A stretch of 64,000 bases of DNA from an uncultured Acidobacteriota bacterium (GTDB lineage Bacteria > Acidobacteriota > Vicinamibacteria > Vicinamibacterales > UBA2999): assembly GCA_963807405.1 (NCBI GenBank), contig CAWEBU010000006.1, forward strand, positions 1,511,733 to 1,575,732, written 5' to 3'. Within the stretch, counting starts at the first letter, position 1. The number at the start of each line of letters is the position of its first letter. The notes below the pieces were generated by a model, which did not search any database, had not been told where the DNA came from, and saw only the letters and a list, made by a program, of their open reading frames with translations. Positions 2,796-61,656 of this stretch are shown here, piece by piece. The position numbers were made by a program, and so were the translations under genes.

Positions 2796-3680
2796 ATGGC
2801 CCTTCCGACCTCCCTGCTCTGCCCGATCGACTTCTCCACCTACAGCGAGCGCGCCTTGCGTCACGCCCTGGCGCTCGCCAGCGCGTTCGGCGCGCATCTC
2901 ACGGTGCTGACGATCAACGACCCGATGCTGGTGGCCGGCGCGGCGGCGGCCGGCTACGGCGCCTCATTGCGCGATCAGGTCGAAGCCGCCCTGCGGGAGA
3001 TGCTCGACCGCATGCCGGCTCCGACAGCGCCACTGCTGCCGGCCATCGACATCGTCACCGGCACTCCCGCCACCGAGATTCTCGCCGCGGTGCCGCGCGT
3101 CGAGGCCGATCTGATCGTCATGGGCTCACGCGGCCTGGGCGGCGCCGCCCGGGTGGTGTTCGGTTCGACCACCGAGCGCGTCGTGCGGTCGGCCACCGTG
3201 CCCGTGCTGGCCGTGCCGGATTACACGCCGGAACGGATGAGCGTGGAACAGGGCGAGGCCCGCTTCACCGTGGGGCACGTCGTGGCCGCCATCGGGTTCG
3301 ACGCCGCCGACGAGAAGGTCGCCGCCAGCGCCGGCACCTGGGCGCGCGCCTGCGGCGCCGCCCTCACCCTGGGCCACGTCTGCCACGACGTCCCGGCGCC
3401 CGTGTGGTGGCCGTTCGGGCCGGCCGCCGAGGAGGCGGAGTCGACCGACACCGCGCGCGAGCAACTGGAAGCGCTCGAACGCGGCGTGCCGCAGGCAGCC
3501 GGCGCCAGAATCGATATCCGGCGCGGCAACGTGGCGGCCGGCATGGCGGCCATCGTCAGCGACAGCAATGCCGGGCTGCTCGTCGTCTCCCGCGGCGGCG
3601 GGCAGCATCGTCTGGGCGCCACCGCCTACCGGGTGATGATCGATGCCGTCGTGCCGACGCTGGTCGTCGGCGACAACTGA
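2796..3680 (+). CDS. Universal stress protein, tandem UspA domains
   Basis: Internal ATG at 2796 of ORF 2553..3680. MALPTSLLCPIDFSTYSERAL...VMGSRGLGG...GSTTERVVR is a USP ATP-binding-type motif, and a second degenerate USP domain follows. The upstream part of the ORF is Arg-rich junk overlapping the cytochrome gene end. Confidence 0.8.
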   Translation: MALPTSLLCPIDFSTYSERALRHALALASAFGAHLTVLTINDPMLVAGAAAAGYGASLRDQVEAALREMLDRMPAPTAPLLPAIDIVTGTPATEILAAVPRVEADLIVMGSRGLGGAARVVFGSTTERVVRSATVPVLAVPDYTPERMSVEQGEARFTVGHVVAAIGFDAADEKVAASAGTWARACGAALTLGHVCHDVPAPVWWPFGPAAEEAESTDTAREQLEALERGVPQAAGARIDIRRGNVAAGMAAIVSDSNAGLLVVSRGGGQHRLGATAYRVMIDAVVPTLVVGDN

Positions 3681-3699
3681 GCCTGGACCAGCAGGCCGG

Positions 3700-3757
3700 G
3701 CCTGAGCCCGGGGCTAGCAGGCTGCGAGGCCTGAGCCCGGGGCCAGGAGGCCGCGAG
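3700..3757. repeat. Two tandem 29-nt GC-rich palindromic units, with degenerate partial copies at 3681-3699 and 3758-3771, between convergent genes
   Basis: GCCTGAGCCCGGGGCTAGCAGGCTGCGAG (3700-3728) versus GCCTGAGCCCGGGGCCAGGAGGCCGCGAG (3729-3757), 26/29 identical. Each unit contains GCCTG...CAGGC and AGCC...GGCT inverted pairs, giving hairpin potential. Confidence 0.6.
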
Positions 3758-3770
3758 GCCTGGCCCGAGA

Positions 3771-5487
3771 CTAGTAGGCCGACAGCAGCGCCGCCGCCGA
3801 CGGGAAGCGCGGTGCGATGTCCACCGGCACGTCCTTCAGCCTGTCGAGCACCTTCTGTGTCTCGGGCCGGATGACGCCGAGGGTCTCGAGCATCGTTCTT
3901 GGCCGCCGCGTAGTCGCCGACGGCCTGCATCGTCATGATGTCGCGCGCGAGCGCGGCGACGGCCTCGCGGATCCTGCCCGGCACGACCGCGAAGGTGCCG
4001 TCGGCGTTCACGGTGAAGGCCCCCTGGTCGAGCAGGTAGTTGAGCTGCACCGCCTGACCGCGCCCGTGCGCTTCGCTGATGCCGAAGCGAATCGAGCGGA
4101 AGGCCGAGGCCAGGAACGTCGTGTACATCGTGCCTTCCATCTCCTTCGGCAGCCGTCCCTTGTCGATCAGGAACTGCAGCGCGAACAGGCCGGTGATGTC
4201 CGCCTTCGCTTCCTCGACGGCACTCGACGTCTCCTTCAGCTCCTGGCGCACGGTGGTTGCCCGTCCGCCGACGGAGATGTTGTGCGGCCCGAGCCCGTGC
4301 ACGAGTTCGTGCATCAGGATGTGTGTGAAGAAGGCATCGAAGGCGACCTGGCCGCGGTCGGCCGGGGCCAGCGCCACCTGCGCGATCGGCAACAGCACGG
4401 TGTCGAACTTGGCCTGCTGGTTGTTCTTCAGCATCACCCGCTTGCTGCCCTTGGCGGCGACGACGCGCTCGTCGTTCGGCAGGTTGAAGGCCGCCGTCTG
4501 CACGCCGCGGTTGCCGTCGCCGGCCGAGAACACGGTGTTCACGACGGCGATCGGCGCCAGGCTGCCCAGCTTGGGATTGCGGTAACGCGGATCGATCGGC
4601 AGGTTGTCCTCGATCTCCTGGAGCGAGGCCGCGAACTGCTGGAGGCGCGCCGACTCGGCCTCGTCCTTGACGGTGATGAACGCCTCGAACGCCGCCTTGT
4701 AGTTGAACCACTCGTCTTCGTAGACCTCGTAGGGCCCGATCGTGGGCTCGAGTGTGGCGTCGAGCTCCATCCACTTCACGTCGCTCTCGTAGTAGTCATT
4801 CGAGAGAAACGCCGCGGCCCGCGCCTCGAGAAAGGCCTTGAGCGTCGGCTGCGCCGTGGCGTCCGCCGCCTGTCTGAGGTGCGACGCGGCCAGTGCCAGC
4901 TCCGTCTGGTACTCCAGGCTGTAGGGCACGGCCACGAATCCGCCGCCGTCGGCGCGCCGGATGGCGGTGAAGAAGCCGGTGGCGGCCTGCCGGGCCGCGC
5001 CCGTCAGCGTGCCGATCCACTGCTCGACCTCGGCCCTGGTGGCGTCGGCCGGATAGAAGTTCGCGGCGGCCGGCTTGGCGGGGACACCCGGCACGAACGG
5101 CTCGTTGTGATCGAGCCGCGACCACGGCCCCTTGTTGATGAGGAAGTAGCGCAGGCGCGCCTGGCCGCGCGCCGATTCGTCGCTGGCGAGCGCCGACAGC
5201 AGCGCCGTGTTGCCGGCCCACACCTGACGCAGGAACAGCGCGTCCATCACCTGCGCGGCGCGGATCATATGGGCCAGTGCCGTTCGCTCCGACTCCGGCA
5301 GCGCCGAGGTGTCGGCCGACAGGTCGGTCGGTGCGAAGCGGGCGGTCTGCTCGGCCAGTGCTGTCATGACCTGGTCGGTGCGCTCGGGCGCGGACCCGGC
5401 GGGCGGAGGCTCGCCAGCGCTGTTGCAGCCGGCAAGCCCGAGTGAGACGAGGGCAGCGAGGACGTACGGCGTGGTCGGTGTGGACAT
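3771..5487 (-). pseudogene. M49 (dipeptidyl-peptidase III-like) zinc peptidase lipoprotein, frame interrupted by one extra base near 3896-3897
   Basis: Start MSTPTTPYVLAALVSLGLAGC carries a lipobox. Zinc motifs are HELVH (a pentapeptide HExxH) and EEAKAD. After ...GDYAAAK the ORF-track frame becomes Arg/Pro junk. The +1 frame instead reads TMLETLGVIRPETQKVLDRLKDVPVDIAPRFPSAAALLSAY and ends at TAG (3773-3771). Confidence 0.75.
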
Positions 5488-5519
5488 GGGCTGGTGGGGG
5501 CGAACGGCCCGGACATGGG

Positions 5520-6077
5520 TCAGTGGACGCCGGGGCTGCCGAGAAGATGGGCGGGGTCGGAGCCGAGCCGGGCGATCGCCTGATCCCACATCCGCTCGGG
5601 CTGACTGCCGAAGATGAGGTCGGCGCCGACCGGTGCCATCAGCCAGGACGCCTGCGCCAGCTCCTCGTCGAGTTGCCCCGGCTCCCATCCGGCGTAGCCA
5701 ACGACCACCCGCACGTCGCTGGCCGGCGGCGACTGCAGCGCCGCGCGCAAGGCCGTCGGCGACGCCGTCAGGTAGACCCCGTCGGCGACTTCGGTGGCGT
5801 CGGCGTCGAGCGACGGCCGCGAGGTGAGCACCCAGGCCCGCCGCTGATCGACCGGACCGCCCGTGAAGAGGAAGACGTCATCTCGAATCGACACCGCCGG
5901 CACGGTCTCCACCACCTCGTTGGCGGGCCTCTCCATCGGCCGGTTGACGACCAGCCCGAAGGCGCCCTCGGGACCGTAGGCGCACAGCAGCACCACCGTC
6001 CGTTCGAAGTTCGGATCGGCCAGTTGCGGCATCGAGATGAGCATCAACGGGGCGATGGAGGATGCGTCATCGGACAT
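5520..6077 (-). CDS. YqgE/AlgH family protein (UPF0301)
   Basis: 185 aa. LMLISMPQLADPNFERTVVLLCAYGPEGAFGLVVNRP is the family hallmark. Confidence 0.85.
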   Translation of the reverse strand: MSDDASSIAPLMLISMPQLADPNFERTVVLLCAYGPEGAFGLVVNRPMERPANEVVETVPAVSIRDDVFLFTGGPVDQRRAWVLTSRPSLDADATEVADGVYLTASPTALRAALQSPPASDVRVVVGYAGWEPGQLDEELAQASWLMAPVGADLIFGSQPERMWDQAIARLGSDPAHLLGSPGVH

Positions 6078-8192: not shown

Positions 8193-9272
8193 CTAGCGTC
8201 TGGCGCGGCGGGTCCGCGCCCACGCCACGGCATCCTCGACCGCCGGCGCCGCGGCGCTGAAAGCCGCGTTCTTCACGGCGCCGCCGGGTGTCGCCAGCGC
8301 GTCCACCGCCGCGTCGTCGCCGGCCGCGGCCGCCAGCGCGAGATTGCGCCGCAGCTGCGACAGCGGCGCATGCGTGAGCGCGCTGCCCTCGACGAACGCG
8401 TGCAGCCGGTCGTCGGGGCGCTGCCAGAGCTCGGTGACGTCCGGCGCATCGCGCGTGGCCCGCGCTTGCCAGGCGGGATCGGCGGTGACCGTCGGCGTCA
8501 GGTTCCACGGGCACACCTCCTGGCAGATGTCGCAGCCGAAGAGATGGCCGGCCGCGGCGCGCTTCTCGTCGTCGGCCAGCACGCCGCCCTTCTCGATCGT
8601 CAGGTAGCTGATGCACTTGCGTGCGTCGACCTCGCGCGCGTCGAGGATGGCGCCGGTGGGACAGGCGTCGATGCACAGGGTGCAGGCGCCGCACTGGTCG
8701 CTGACGAGGGCATCGGCCGCGAGTGGCAGCGTCGTGGCGATGCCGGCCAGCAGGACCCACGATCCGATCTCGGGGTTGATGAGCAGCGAGTGCTTGCCGA
8801 TCCAGCCGAGGCCCGCGTAGGCCGCGACCACACGCTCCTGCACCCAGTGCTTGTCGACGAAGACGGCGGCGTCGAACGGGTGCTCCGCGGTTGCCTGCAT
8901 CCACGCCAGCAGCGCGTCGAGCCGCGCCTGCAGCACGCGGTGATAGTCCTCACCGCGCGCGTAGCGGGCCACGGTGGCCGATGGCGCCGGCGTCCGGTCG
9001 GGCCCGGTGTAGTAGTTGGTGGCGGTCATCACGACCGAGCGCGCGCCCGGGAGGAACTTCGTGACGTCGGCCCGCACCGCCGCCGACCGCTCGAGATAGC
9101 GCATCTCGCCGTGCTGCCCGCGCGCCACCCAATCGTGGATGCGCCCGAGCTCCGGCATCCCGGTGGCCGGTGCGATGCCGCACAGATCGAACCCCAGCAT
9201 CCGCGCCTGCGCCTTGATCGCAGACGGTGTCAGCGTCGGCGTCATCGCGACCACGTCGTGGACGGCAGGCAC
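8193..9272 (-). CDS. queG: tRNA epoxyqueuosine(34) reductase QueG
   Basis: 4Fe-4S motifs CGACTLCIDACPTGAI and CDICQEVCPWN, plus CISYLTIE. The start is more likely the ATG at 9245 (MTPTLTPSAIKAQARMLGFDLCGI), because 9261-9272 already belongs to the left arm of the inverted-repeat element. Confidence 0.85.
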   Translation of the reverse strand: MPAVHDVVAMTPTLTPSAIKAQARMLGFDLCGIAPATGMPELGRIHDWVARGQHGEMRYLERSAAVRADVTKFLPGARSVVMTATNYYTGPDRTPAPSATVARYARGEDYHRVLQARLDALLAWMQATAEHPFDAAVFVDKHWVQERVVAAYAGLGWIGKHSLLINPEIGSWVLLAGIATTLPLAADALVSDQCGACTLCIDACPTGAILDAREVDARKCISYLTIEKGGVLADDEKRAAAGHLFGCDICQEVCPWNLTPTVTADPAWQARATRDAPDVTELWQRPDDRLHAFVEGSALTHAPLSQLRRNLALAAAAGDDAAVDALATPGGAVKNAAFSAAAPAVEDAVAWARTRRARR

Positions 9273-9491
9273 GAGCGACGGCAGGCGGTGGCCGCCTGGC
9301 GGCGACTATGAGCCGTCGTCGCTCGGAGATCCGGCACTCGCGCCGAAAGTGCGGGTGACACGGACCCTTGGGGATGGGGGCCCCCAAGAGTGCATTGGAC
9401 GCAGGACAAGCCGCCGGCAGGCGCGAGTGACCGACGCGGCGAATCGGAGCCGCCAGGCGGCCACCGCCTGCCGTCTCTCGTGCCTGTCGTC
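9261..9491. repeat. About 230-bp element bounded by 43-bp near-perfect inverted repeats (MITE-like element or long structured RNA/terminator)
   Basis: The reverse complement of 9261-9303 (gacggcaggcacgagcgacggcaggcggtggccgcctggcggc) matches 9449-9491 at 41/43 positions. Each arm contains its own 7-bp hairpin CAGGCGG-tgg-CCGCCTG. The core has further GC hairpins (cttgggg...ccccaag). I saw no target-site duplication. Confidence 0.6.
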
Positions 9492-9503
9492 ATCACATGG
9501 CCG

Positions 9504-12182
9504 CTACTTCTTCGCCACCAGCTGGCGCAGGACGTAGGGCAGGATGCCGCCGTGGCTGTAGGCCGCCAGCTCCTCCGGCGTGTCGATCCGGCAGATCGCC
9601 TCGAAGGACTTGACGCCGCCGGCCGCCGCCGTGGCCGTCACCGTGACGCGCGCCCGCGCCTTGAGGGCCGCGCCGGCGCCGGTCAGCGCGAACGTCTCGC
9701 GGCCATTGAGGCCGAGCGACGCGGCCGACTCGCCGTCCTGGAACTGCAGCGGCAGCACCCCCATGTTGACCAGGTTGCTGCGGTGGATGCGCTCGTAGCT
9801 CTCGGCGATGACCGCCTTCACGCCGAGCAGCATCGTCCCCTTGGCGGCCCAGTCGCGCGACGAGCCCGAGCCGTACTCCTTGCCCGCCAGCACGATGAGC
9901 GGCACGCCGGCTTCCTGGTACTTCATCGCGGCGTCGTAGATCGACATGATGTCGCCGCCGGGCAGCAGGGCCGTGACGCCGCCCTCGACGCCGGGCACCA
10001 GCTGGTTCTTGATGCGCGTATTGGCGAACGTGCCGCGCATCATCACCTCGTGGTTGCCGCGCCGGGCCCCGTAGGAGTTGAAGTCCTTGGGCGCCACGCC
10101 GTGCTCGACGAGGTACTTGCCGGCCGGGCTGTCGGCCTTGATGTTGCCGGCCGGTGAGATGTGATCGGTGGTGATGCTGTCGCCGAGCAGGGCGAGCACG
10201 CGGGCGCCGCTGATGTCGGTCAGGGGCGCCGGCTGCATCGAGAGGTTCTCGAGGAACGGCGGCCGTCGCACGTAGGTGGAATCCGCCTCCCAGTTGAAGC
10301 GGTCGCCGGTCGGCACCGGCAGGCCGCGCCAGCGCTCGTCGCCCTCGAACACGTGCGCGTACTGCGAGATGAAGGCCTGCGACGTCACGCTGGCGGCCAT
10401 CGCCGCGGCGATCTCGGTGTCGGTCGGCCAGATGTCCTTCAGGTAGACCGGCGTGCCGTCGGTGCCGGTGCCGAGGGGCTCGGTCGTCAGGTCGAGGTTC
10501 ATCGTGCCGGCAATCGCGTAGGCCACGACCAGCGGCGGCGAGGCCAGGTAGTTGGCGCGCACGTCCTGCTGGATGCGGCCCTCGAAGTTGCGGTTGCCGG
10601 ACAGGACCGAGGCCACGACCAGGCCGCGCTCGCGGATCTCGGCCGACACGTCCTCGGGCAGCGGCCCTGAGTTGCCGATGCAGGTCGTGCAGCCGTAGCC
10701 GACCAGGTTGAAGCCGATCTTGTCGAGCCAGGTGTCGAGCCCGGCCGACCGCAGGTACTCGGTGACCACCTTCGACCCGGGGGCGAGCGACGTCTTCACC
10801 CACGGCTTGCGGGTCAGGCCGCGCTCGACCGCCTTCTTCGCCACCAGCCCGGCGCCGATCATCACGCCCGGGTTCGACGTGTTGGTGCAGCTCGTGATGG
10901 CCGCGATGACGACCGACCCGTGTTCGAGCTGGGTGGCGGTCGCCACGGCCGTCCCGCCGCCGGCCGCCACCTTGACGCCCTTCCTGAGCTCGTCGAGCGA
11001 GCCGGCAAACGACGTCTTGGCGTCGCTGAGCGGCACGCGGTCCTGCGGACGGCGCGGACCGGCCAGGCTCGGCACGATGGTCGCGAGATCGAGCTCGAGC
11101 CCTTCGGAGTAGATGGCGTCCGGCGTCGACTCGGTGCGGAAGAGGCCCTGCGCCTTCGCGTAGGCCTCGACGAGTGCCACCTGATCGGCGGAACGGCCCG
11201 TGAGGCGGAGATAGTCGAGCGTCAGCTCGTCGATCGGGAAGATCGCCACCGTGGCGCCGTACTCCGGGCACATGTTGCCGAGCGTGACGCGGTCGGCGAT
11301 GGTGAGATGGCCGAGGCCGGGGCCGTAGAACTCGACGAACTTGCCGACCACCTTGTGCTTGCGCAGCGCCTCGGTGATCGTGAGCACCAGATCCGTCGCC
11401 GTGGCGCCCTCGGGCAGCTGGCCGGTGAGCCGGCAGCCGACCACCGGCGGAATCAGCATCGAGCTCGGCTGGCCGAGCATCGCCGCCTCGGCTTCGATGC
11501 CGCCCACGCCCCAGCCGACGACGCCGAGCCCGTTGACCATCGTCGTGTGCGAGTCGGTGCCGAAGCAGGTGTCCGGATAGAGCACGCCGCCTTCGTTGCA
11601 GACGACGCGCGCGAGGTACTCGATGTTCACCTGGTGGACGATGCCGGTCTCGGGCGGCACCACGCGGAAGTTCTCGAAGGCGTTCTGCCCCCAGCGCAGG
11701 AACACATAGCGCTCGCGGTTGCGCTGGTACTCGAGCTCGGCGTTCAGACCAACGGCATTCGCGGTGCCGAAGTGGTCGACCTGCACCGAGTGGTCGATGA
11801 CCAGCTCCACCGGCTGCAGCGGATTGACGCGGGCCGGGTCGCCGCCCGAGGGCGGCGATGCCGTCGCGCATGGCGGCCAGATCGACGACGCAGGGCACGC
11901 CGGTGAAGTCCTGCAGGATCACGCGCGCCGGCATGAACGAGATCTCCTTGTCGGCGTTGACCGCCGCCGGGTTCCAGCCGGCCAGGGCGCGGATGTCGTC
12001 GGCCTTCACGAAGGCGCTCGTCCTCGCGGCGCAGCAGGTTCTCGAGCAGGATCTTCAGCGAGAACGGCAGGCGCTCCACCGAGGGGAAGGCGCCGGCCAG
12101 CGCGGGCAGGCTGAAGTAGTCGTACGGACTGGTCCGCAAGACGCAGGGACATCCGGGTGCTGAACGAGTTGTGGCTGGACAT
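9504..12182 (-). pseudogene. acnA: Aconitate hydratase AcnA, frame interrupted by three single-base insertions in the first ~340 nt (gene probably functional, insertions likely consensus errors)
   Basis: The body ORF 9504..11810 is unmistakable aconitase ([44 protein letters not shown]). The N-terminus is readable only by changing frame. MSSHNSFSTRMSLRLADQS runs from ATG 12182. It is followed by [37 protein letters not shown], then [56 protein letters not shown], then [19 protein letters not shown]. Confidence 0.9.
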
Positions 12183-12376
12183 GATCCCGGGAATTCTAAC
12201 AGGTGGCGCCGCGCCTGCGGTCGCCAACGGGCAGCGAGCGTCCGCGGCCGGACACCGCGCCGCCACCGGCTGCCGTGGCGGCGCCGCCGCTGCCGGTGTT
12301 TGCGGCGGGATCTCGCCGCGCCGGATGGCCACGCCGCGCCGCCGCCGCTGGCACGGAATTGGTAAGCACGCAGGGC

Positions 12377-58236: not shown

Positions 58237-58313
58237 AGGCGCGTAGCTCAGCTGGTTAGAGCGCCTGCTTGACACGCAGGAGGTCGGCAGTTCGAGTCTG
58301 CCCGTGCCTACCA
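58237..58313 (+). tRNA. tRNA-Val (anticodon GAC), CCA encoded
   Basis: Hand-folded cloverleaf. Acceptor aggcgcg/cgtgcct (one G-U pair), D stem gctc/gagc, anticodon stem cctgc/gcagg with loop ttGACac, T arm ggcag-ttcgagt-ctgcc, discriminator a, then cca. Length 77 nt. Confidence 0.9.
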
Positions 58314-60905: not shown

Positions 60906-61103
60906 ATGCCGAAGATGAAGAGTCACCGGGGCGCCGCCAAGCGCTTCAAGAAGACGGGCACGGGCAAGTTCGTCCGCGCGGCCGCCTTCAAGCGCCACCA
61001 GTTGACCTGCAAGTCGACCCAGATGAAGCGTCACGCGCGCGGCAACAAGCTGGTCTCGGATTCCGAGCAGGCCAAGCTGCGCCGCATGCTGCCGTACGAC
61101 TAG
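60906..61103 (+). CDS. rpmI: 50S ribosomal protein L35
   Basis: 65 aa. [22 protein letters not shown]. Confidence 0.95.
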
Positions 61104-61293
61104 CGGCTGGCGGCTAGGGGCTCGCGGCGAGGAACCCTCGGTTCCCACTCGCCGCTTCTCCCACAGCCGAACGCCGCATCCGATCGACGACTGGCGGTTA
61201 GGGCAATTCCGTCATCGGTCGTTGGTACGCCCTCGAGCGTGACCAAATCTAGCCACTAGCCGCTAGCCCCTAGCCGCCATTCAGGAGTCCGTC
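61104..61293 (+). promoter_or_regulatory. Structured 190-nt rpmI-rplT spacer (candidate cis-regulatory leader of rplT)
   Basis: A long-range helix pairs 61109-61127 with 61260-61278 (14 perfect bp GGCGGCTAGGGGCT/AGCCCCTAGCCGCC, then 1 mismatch, then 4 bp). A hairpin spans 61124-61155 (gcggcgag...ctcgccgc with inner ggaacc/ggttcc). A second hairpin spans about 61171-61220. The SD CAGGAG lies 5 nt after the 3' arm. Confidence 0.4.
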
Positions 61294-61656
61294 ATGCCTC
61301 GCGTCAAACGCGGCACGGTCCGTCGTGCCAAGCGAAAGAAGCTGGAGAAGCTCACCAAGGGCTACTTCCAGAACAAGTCCAAGCTCTACAAGTTCATGAA
61401 GGAAGCGGCCGACAAGGCAGGCGTCTACGCCTATGCCGGCCGCAAGCAGAAGAAGCGCGACTACCGCAGCCTGTGGGTCATGCGCATCAACGCCGCGGCG
61501 CGCGAGCACGGCATCTCCTACAGCGTGTTCATGAGCGGCATCAAGAAGGCCGGCATCGAACTCGACCGCAAGAGCCTGGCGGACCTGGCCGCCCGCGACG
61601 CGGCGGCCTTCGCCGTCATCGCCGGCCAGGCCAAGGCGGCCGCCGGCGTGGCCTAG
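61294..61656 (+). CDS. rplT: 50S ribosomal protein L20
   Basis: 120 aa. [25 protein letters not shown]...[17 protein letters not shown]. Confidence 0.95.

Follow-up and report, generated by a model that had tools for sequence, protein, structure and literature searches.

A conserved, single-copy hairpin element between acnA and queG in Vicinamibacterales-like Acidobacteria

In a 64,000-nucleotide stretch of DNA from an uncultured Acidobacteriota bacterium (contig CAWEBU010000006.1; this whole stretch is referred to as the window), the minus-strand genes acnA and queG are separated by a spacer that folds as a whole into a single hairpin, and it is this spacer element that we characterize here. 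At its heart lies an inverted repeat: when 9261-9303 is aligned with the reverse complement of 9449-9491, 41 of the 43 positions are complementary, the two mismatches being G9265.T9487, which would be a G.U pair in a plus-strand transcript, and C9276.T9476. Dinucleotide shuffles of the window, which has a G+C content of 70.7%, yielded zero matches of this kind. A repeat finder extended the arms to 55 nt (9261-9315 / 9437-9491) that are 87% complementary and 121 nt apart, and reported a further inner repeat pair at 9330-9344 / 9420-9434; the acnA-queG inverted repeat is the longest, cleanest and strongest of the 64-kb window. No direct repeat that could represent a target-site duplication (TSD) was found at the element ends. 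Instead, complementarity continues to both ends of the spacer, and the flanks of the element are themselves complementary out to the acnA stop and queG start codons. The original prediction for this DNA, made from its letters and open reading frames (ORFs), had described the 43-nt near-perfect repeat, the G-U character of one mismatch, a 7-bp hairpin within each arm and the lack of a TSD, and all of these descriptions proved accurate; the mirrored RRWPPGG peptides that it had dismissed as a symmetry artefact are indeed present in the translations.

QueG homologues assign the window to Vicinamibacterales-like Acidobacteriota. Homologous elements occupy the same spacer in six Vicinamibacterales-like lineages: the window, L002 (the same as L010), L004, L101-106 (represented also by L006), L092-100 and L113-116, where L-numbers denote loci fetched for comparison. 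In these lineages the spacer measures 258-294 nt, and the carriers belong to one group of soil and wastewater Acidobacteria, contigs of the L101 type being found repeatedly in wastewater assemblies. The window holds a single copy according to exact and mismatch searches, short-word BLAST, unfiltered nhmmer, a covariance model of the core and a search with the arm-hairpin motif: The covariance model scores 176 bits at 9298-9454(-) versus 12.8 bits for the runner-up, and the arm-hairpin motif occurs in the two arms of the element and at one weak site with three mismatches. The same motif was found in none of the 121 fetched loci. As a probe for a larger collection we used the most conserved exact 21-mer of the element, CCGATTCGCCGCGTCGGTCAC, against the GTDB representatives (one genome per species, 185,579 species; the window's own genome is not included), which gave eight matches. 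Three of them lie in acidobacterial metagenome-assembled genomes (MAGs; L004, L006, L010), once per genome and always between acnA and queG. The other five (L005, L007, L008, L009, L011) were rejected as chance, being located in unrelated phyla with 21-42 nt aligned; in the three that were inspected (L007, L009, L011) the surrounding sequence reads as coding. Among 72,556 plasmids there was no match, the sole match of two viral scans (L121) lies inside a 733-aa ORF and was likewise rejected as chance, and a metagenome scan with a second conserved block was negative. Moreover, the element is present in none of 80 metagenomic queG loci, which are at most 55% identical except for one truncated 75% locus that contains no upstream sequence. 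Within a set of 60 distant queG loci, acnA is located upstream in 23, with spacers that mostly comprise 1-54 nt, and none of them contains the element.

Closer to the window, four further lineages (L003, L107-112, L117/118 and L119/120) have spacers of just 29-45 nt. The two groups also differ in the C-terminus of AcnA, which ends in KK* in element-bearing genomes versus R(T/S)S* in short-spacer genomes; the C-terminus encoded in the window, ...LRQLVAKK*, is typical of the element-bearing clade. In a rough tree three of the four short-spacer lineages group apart. Because relatives have short spacers, the long element is best regarded as derived, and its distribution indicates that it is a clade-specific, vertically inherited feature which appears to have been lost or replaced occasionally. 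The closest relative, L001 (QueG 83% and the C-terminal 300 codons of AcnA 91% identical), has a spacer of 183 nt (5818-6000) that contains another, shorter inverted repeat of 28 nt and in which the core could not be detected. We rejected this palindrome as a homologue, as it has only the short strings GCGGTATC / GACACCGC in common with the outer stem and gives no hidden Markov model or covariance-model match; the L001 spacer may be a deleted derivative of the element.

Unrelated palindromes that span the whole acnA-queG spacer were also observed in other loci: besides L001, they occur in L013 (2350-2500), in L027 (1030-1130), L028 (2410-2500) and L037 (1200-1320), which have one palindrome family in common, and in L030 and L034 (both 2400-2500), which have another. 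The L013 palindrome is a 45-bp stem of AGTAGTCAGTAG repeats. The palindromes of distant lineages display no consistent strand preference. That palindromes recur at this junction in other Acidobacteria suggests that either a strong hairpin is generally needed behind acnA, or palindromic DNA lands preferentially at this site.

One sense frame across the element is open in all lineages, with a semi-conserved AUG start and a stop at an ATGA or ATGCTGA overlap with the queG start. A small protein was nevertheless ruled out by the missing codon-position signal and a frame shift: GC1, GC2 and GC3 (the G+C content at the three codon positions) are all about 0.7 in the element versus a GC3 of 0.93-0.96 in queG and acnA, the variable columns of the element are distributed over the codon positions as 29/35/31, and in L002 the open frame shifts mid-element. 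While QueG proteins are 78-83% identical between lineages, the identity at fourfold-degenerate sites is 52-69% in queG and 68-77% in acnA. Within the spacer the inner arms reach a mean identity of 86-89%, the outer stem 72-74% and the rest 43-49%; the outermost ends of the element are its least conserved part, and the interior is the most conserved. Since the identity of the interior exceeds that of the rest of the spacer and that of fourfold sites, the comparison argues that purifying selection on the interior equals or exceeds that on the flanking coding sequence.

The folding free energy of 9240-9510 (271 nt, comprising the spacer and a few flanking bases) is -181 kcal/mol versus -124 +/- 5 kcal/mol for shuffled sequences (z = -10.5), and the plus- and minus-strand folds are equally stable. 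In the minimum free energy (MFE) structure, spacer nucleotides 1-9 pair with 248-256, and the base of the hairpin is positioned 1 nt past the acnA stop codon and 2 nt ahead of the queG ATG. The same holds in outline for every element-bearing lineage: The hairpin spans nearly the whole spacer, with its base abutting the stop and start codons. No clear Shine-Dalgarno sequence could be recognized upstream of the queG ATG, where the bases are paired in the hairpin base. The long closing stem of about 55-60 bp drifts in sequence while its pairing is kept, and it encloses a core common to all six lineages that consists of the inner closing stem, a 9x9 internal loop (CUCCGAUUCG / GCUCAUAGUC), a helix designated P2, a three-way junction and an apical hairpin.

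A consensus structure was computed with RNAalifold from eight distinct sequences that represent the six independent lineages. It comprises 78 pairs, of which 44 form the closing stem, broken by the conserved 9x9 internal loop; the interior contains P2 with 9-10 bp, a junction that bears two small hairpins, and a GGGG/CCCC stem at the apex. Standard pairs fill 93.3% of the cells of this consensus, and 20 of the 78 pairs have changed on both sides with the pair kept. These values were reached in none of 500 shuffles, and when the partners were slid by 1-3 columns, 33-48% remained paired, with 2-8 double-change pairs. Examples are pair 86/277 (A-U in four sequences, C-G in four), pair 52/311 (G-C in five, A-U in three) and the P2 pair 108/243 (A-U in six, G-C in two). 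Given six lineages, this covariation supports a paired structure, although not conclusively. A 9-nt motif is present in three copies (CACUCGCRC, CACCCGCAC and GYGCGAGUG), by which a local hairpin could form instead of P2; covariation backs P2 over the local hairpin, which contains an A.C in the window and in L101 and is perfect in L113. An optional extra apical hairpin of 33-44 nt (GGGGCCCCCGTCGCGCGTGGYCTGCGCGATGGGGTGGYGTCCCC) is limited to L002 (5828-5871) and L113-116 (L113:2836-2879); L092 is without it and is 96% identical to L113 elsewhere, a pattern that indicates a recent indel or recombination. Elsewhere in the analysed DNA there was no match to GGGGCCCCCGTCGCGCGTGGYCTGCGCGATGGGGTGGYGTCCCC. 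The coordinates of all features are compiled in Table 1.

Table 1. Features of the acnA-queG junction in window coordinates, with strand and basis.
Feature	Position	Strand	Basis or remark
queG (QueG)	8193-9245	-	NCBIfam TIGR00276, 290 bits
queG start codon ATG	9243-9245	-	
acnA-queG intercistronic spacer, whole, 258 nt	9246-9503	-	sequence, MFE fold, gene identities
acnA stop codon TAG	9504-9506	-	
acnA (AcnA)	9504 upward	-	NCBIfam, 1260 bits
Closing stem, 5' arm in acnA/queG mRNA sense	9437-9491	-	repeat finder, helix 1 pairs; outer 43 nt (9449-9491) are the right arm of the original prediction
Closing stem, 3' arm in acnA/queG mRNA sense	9261-9315	-	repeat finder, helix 1 pairs; outer 43 nt (9261-9303) are the left arm of the original prediction
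Local 7-bp hairpin CAGGCGG-TGG-CCGCCTG in one arm	9282-9298	n/a	not conserved in L101
Mirror-image local hairpin in the other arm	9454-9470	n/a	
Conserved core common to six lineages	9298-9454	-	covariance model 176 bits, E 4e-38
Helix P2, 5' strand CACUCGCGCC (mRNA sense)	9420-9429	-	repeat finder, RNAalifold
Helix P2, 3' strand GGCGCGAGUG (mRNA sense)	9335-9344	-	alternative partner: nearby middle copy CACCCGCAC
Apical hairpin CUUGGGG-GCCCCCAU-CCCCAAG, with palindrome GGGGGCCCCC	9367-9388	-	

Several observations concern the surroundings of the element. At the 5' end of acnA (11836-12185, minus strand) the reading frame is split into four segments (frames -3, -1, -2, -3), corresponding to three frameshifts within the first ~115 codons, and the other 780 codons form an uninterrupted frame with 92% identity to L001 AcnA. 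These frameshifts are most likely indel errors of the long-read MAG assembly; that acnA is a pseudogene is less likely. L002, which stems from the same kind of assembly, likewise has truncated or split genes. A 710-aa ORF at 3556-5688 (minus strand) has no NCBIfam match at E <= 0.001. Finally, the window contains an rpmI (L35)-rplT (L20) spacer of ~195 nt (61100-61295, plus strand) closed by a 24-nt, 92% complementary inverted repeat (61108-61131 / 61256-61279) that extends from the rpmI stop codon to a point just ahead of the rplT Shine-Dalgarno sequence (z = -4.4; no Rfam match), and that may constitute a second whole-spacer intercistronic hairpin. The rpmI-rplT operon is known from elsewhere for structure-mediated translational coupling.

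The element between acnA and queG is thus real, single-copy, syntenic and noncoding; it is under purifying selection, and its pairing is kept by compensatory change. Of the two interpretations that the original prediction had offered, the first, a miniature inverted-repeat transposable element (MITE) or insertion-sequence remnant, is not supported as a description of the present-day element: Terminal inverted repeats exist, as expected of a MITE, yet the dispersed copies that would have marked one were not found (one copy in the window, and the 21-mer only at acnA-queG in three relatives), a TSD is lacking, and the ends are least conserved. Copy number, the missing TSD and the way conservation is distributed rule out an active MITE or repetitive extragenic palindromic (REP) family; the element may have originated from an ancient insertion. 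The second interpretation, an extended RNA structure in the acnA 3' and queG 5' untranslated regions, holds in outline owing to synteny in six lineages, constraint and the compensatory double changes that orthologous spacers exhibit in 20 of 78 pairs, whereas its version as a terminator fails, as no U-tract was found. The element belongs to no family of Rfam 15 (including preQ1, cobalamin, 6S, HEARO and Acido-1), the best match being sX9 with 16 bits (gathering score 44) and E = 3, and no preQ1, cobalamin or other riboswitch family matches it at E <= 10; the window's sole Rfam match at gathering score is a tRNA gene at 58237-58310 (plus strand). As stated in the original prediction, the window element lacks a CAGUG loop of the type known from iron-responsive elements (IREs). 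Such a loop is not conserved either; CAGUG occurs only in L101, where it is part of a stem. A literature search on queG leaders, Vicinamibacter noncoding RNAs and acidobacterial MITEs produced nothing relevant besides a classification of REPs (PMC3733652).

Lying 258 nt apart in the same orientation, the two genes are separated by no detectable terminator or promoter; for these reasons, the element is probably transcribed on the sense strand within an acnA-queG mRNA. In particular, no intrinsic terminator (hairpin plus U-tract) was detected between acnA and queG by a scan that is blind to a hairpin of ~230 nt, the sense strand continues after the stem with CG-AUG and no U run, and no sigma-70 promoter was found between the genes on either strand by a scan that covers the sigma-70 consensus only. 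The explanation that we tentatively favour over all others is that the element acts in cis as an intercistronic RNA hairpin which affects processing, stability and queG translation. In the acnA-queG mRNA it would form a very stable hairpin, the base of which would juxtapose the acnA stop and queG start codons and bury the queG initiation region. Such a hairpin could protect or process the 3' end of the abundant acnA message, with the long duplex as a plausible RNase III substrate; it could hold back queG translation; and the stem base might be melted by ribosomes that terminate at acnA, which would link queG translation to acnA termination. The 230-nt insert would effectively be looped out of an otherwise tightly coupled gene pair. 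The recurrent palindromes at the junction and the closing stem of the rpmI-rplT spacer fit this cis-acting hairpin.

A number of observations weigh against the favoured explanation, among them the limited reach of the terminator and promoter scans just mentioned. The antisense strand folds as well as the sense strand or better, by 10-17 kcal/mol in L002, L004, L113 and L114, and in the aligned closing stem the sense strand has ~9-10 A.C events versus ~3-5 G.U events, an imbalance that is not significant; selection on a sense RNA would predict the reverse, and the excess of A.C would favour the plus strand of the window. At least four relatives lack any element, which implies that its function is dispensable, and the closest relative L001 is without the core according to the covariance model. 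As the independent lineages number only six, the covariation statistics remain weak, and relatedness confounds them. Furthermore, a simple stabilizing or occluding hairpin fails to explain the high sequence conservation of both inner arms. The strand data bear directly on an unlikely alternative, namely that the element is an independent small RNA gene, possibly on the plus strand and hence antisense to acnA-queG, with the long stem and conserved core as its mature RNA, that acts in trans or regulates the junction as a cis-antisense RNA. This would accommodate the equally or more stable antisense folds, the intermediates at covarying positions of the aligned stem, where A.C on the sense strand equals G.U on the antisense strand, the highly conserved core sequence, as in many small RNAs, and the weak pyrimidine/U-rich tail CUACUUCUUCG that follows the plus-strand hairpin and derives from the clade-specific KK* codons. 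That tail is, however, no proper U-tract, the sigma-70 scan revealed no promoter-like site on either strand, and upstream of the element on the plus strand sequence identity is low (43%). The imbalance between G.U and A.C vanishes in an MFE-based count (14 G.U versus 10 A.C on the sense strand), and the G.U at pair 99/263 in seven of eight sequences, together with a G.U in the optional hairpin, favours the sense strand. The strong conservation of the core points to an additional partner. Accommodating such a partner, the core might represent a new Vicinamibacterales-specific class of regulatory RNA that binds a protein or small molecule and, acting in cis or as a processed small RNA, couples the status of the tricarboxylic acid (TCA) cycle and Fe-S clusters (acnA) to the queuosine modification of tRNA (queG), but we consider this improbable. 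Still more doubtful, and the least probable of the explanations considered, is a ligand- or protein-sensing queG leader or acnA trailer, that is, a new riboswitch (e.g., for a queuosine precursor or cobalamin) or an apo-aconitase site coupling Fe-S/TCA status to mRNA fate. Aconitase does bind mRNA in other bacteria; its bacterial targets are poorly defined. The position of the element between genes for an Fe-S enzyme and a cobalamin/Fe-S tRNA-modification enzyme, the conserved internal loops and junction, and the three copies of the 9-nt motif, which permit two mutually exclusive pairings with the alternative hairpin being perfect in L113, would suit a sensor. It is opposed by the lack of any riboswitch family match and of a conserved IRE-like loop, by the covariation in favour of the long-range P2 rather than the alternative hairpin with its A.C in the window and L101, by the 55-bp closing stem, which is atypical of riboswitches, and by a very narrow distribution with dispensability in close relatives.

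The symmetry of the element could also be maintained at the level of DNA, as a cruciform, a single-strand hairpin or paired inverted protein sites, either by selection or by template-switch correction. Quasi-palindrome correction is an established mutational mechanism. Both strands fold equally well, the mismatches are without strand bias, and the inner arms are both conserved as mirror images, all of which would be expected in this case. Several conserved features are, however, asymmetric and unmirrored: an 11-12-nt bulge in one arm, the non-complementary 9x9 loop and the off-centre three-way junction. They speak for a single strand that folds with specific loops and against a symmetric site in duplex DNA, and template-switch correction would homogenize the conserved loops, too. 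As, in addition, there is no indication of a role in replication or recombination at this site between two housekeeping genes, we regard maintenance at the DNA level as very improbable. Somewhat more credible, although still rather unlikely, is a fossil or domesticated mobile palindrome, i.e., a MITE or a REP doublet (REPIN-like) that inserted once in the ancestor of the clade, has been immobile since and was possibly exapted; as this concerns the origin of the element, it is compatible with the favoured cis-acting hairpin. It draws on the long terminal inverted repeats, each arm of which is itself a small hairpin, on the short ancestral spacer, which makes the element an insertion or expansion, and on the presence or absence of the 33-44-nt hairpin within the element. 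Moreover, the unrelated palindromes at the same junction, some of them REP-like with GTAG motifs (for REP features see PMC3733652), would mark the site as one that attracts palindromic DNA. Set against this are the lack of a TSD, the single copy in the window and in each of three genomes with none in plasmid or viral collections, and a gradient in which the tips are least and the interior is most conserved, which is the reverse of a transposase-bound terminal inverted repeat (TIR). A decaying remnant would not be expected to show compensatory changes and conservation far above neutral, and the arm hairpins with their 7-bp stem and 3-nt loop are unlike the described CGTC/GTAG REP families (PMC3733652).

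If the cis-acting hairpin is the correct explanation, the element would be an RNA motif not described before, from the Vicinamibacteria, which are abundant in soil and wastewater yet poorly studied. It would also provide a clean natural case of an operon that tolerates or exploits a large palindromic insert, as the insert is looped out by its closing stem between the stop codon of one gene and the start codon of the next. The element bears on no long-standing open question; it is narrowly distributed and dispensable in close relatives.

Against the background of known systems, the element resembles conserved structured noncoding RNAs in general, in that it combines orthologous conservation above neutral with compensatory changes, observed across only six lineages. 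REPs located between co-transcribed genes stabilize the upstream mRNA. The element resembles REPs, bacterial interspersed mosaic elements and REPINs in carrying a short GC-rich hairpin in each arm and in having its two arms arranged as an inverted doublet; it differs by its 145-nt conserved core and by the 7-bp stem and 3-nt loop of its arm hairpins. Membership in the GTAG/CGTC REP and REPIN families is further contradicted by the inter-arm spacer of 121-145 nt, the lack of repeated copies and the other stem/loop geometry: in CGTC REP families the stem measures 8-9 bp and the loop 4-5 nt, and REPs in general comprise 20-40 nt, are multi-copy and carry family-specific tags (PMC3733652). With Correia repeat enclosed elements (CREEs) of Neisseria and with MITEs, the element has in common the terminal inverted repeats around a core of 100-150 nt. 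Where Correia elements and MITEs are co-transcribed, they form long hairpins which RNase III can cleave and which alter the expression of neighbouring genes. Unlike the acnA-queG element with its variable tips, conserved interior, single copy and missing TSD, Correia elements are flanked by TA target duplications, are conserved at their 26-nt TIR tips and exist in hundreds of copies. Enterobacterial repetitive intergenic consensus (ERIC) sequences, or intergenic repeat units, of Enterobacteriaceae and Vibrio are imperfect palindromes in transcribed intergenic regions that often occupy orthologous sites in related species and probably affect mRNA stability by acting as RNA. Location between genes, orthologous sites and variants with optional internal insertions are common to ERICs and the element, whereas ERICs measure ~127 bp and number tens to hundreds per genome, and the element has ~230-260 nt, is single-copy, bears no sequence relationship to ERICs and is restricted to one clade of Acidobacteria.

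Functional parallels would also be found in E. coli rpmI-rplT and in the coat-replicase junction of phage MS2, where a downstream start is sequestered by pairing at or near the end of the upstream cistron and is opened by upstream translation or termination. The abutment of the element's stem base on the acnA stop and queG start codons is reminiscent of this arrangement. In those systems, however, the pairings are short and located in coding sequence, whereas here a structured insert of 230 nt would be looped out and coupling is a proposal drawn from that geometry. The element belongs to none of the compared families and is best filed as a family of its own, new and narrowly distributed, among the conserved structured elements of intergenic regions.

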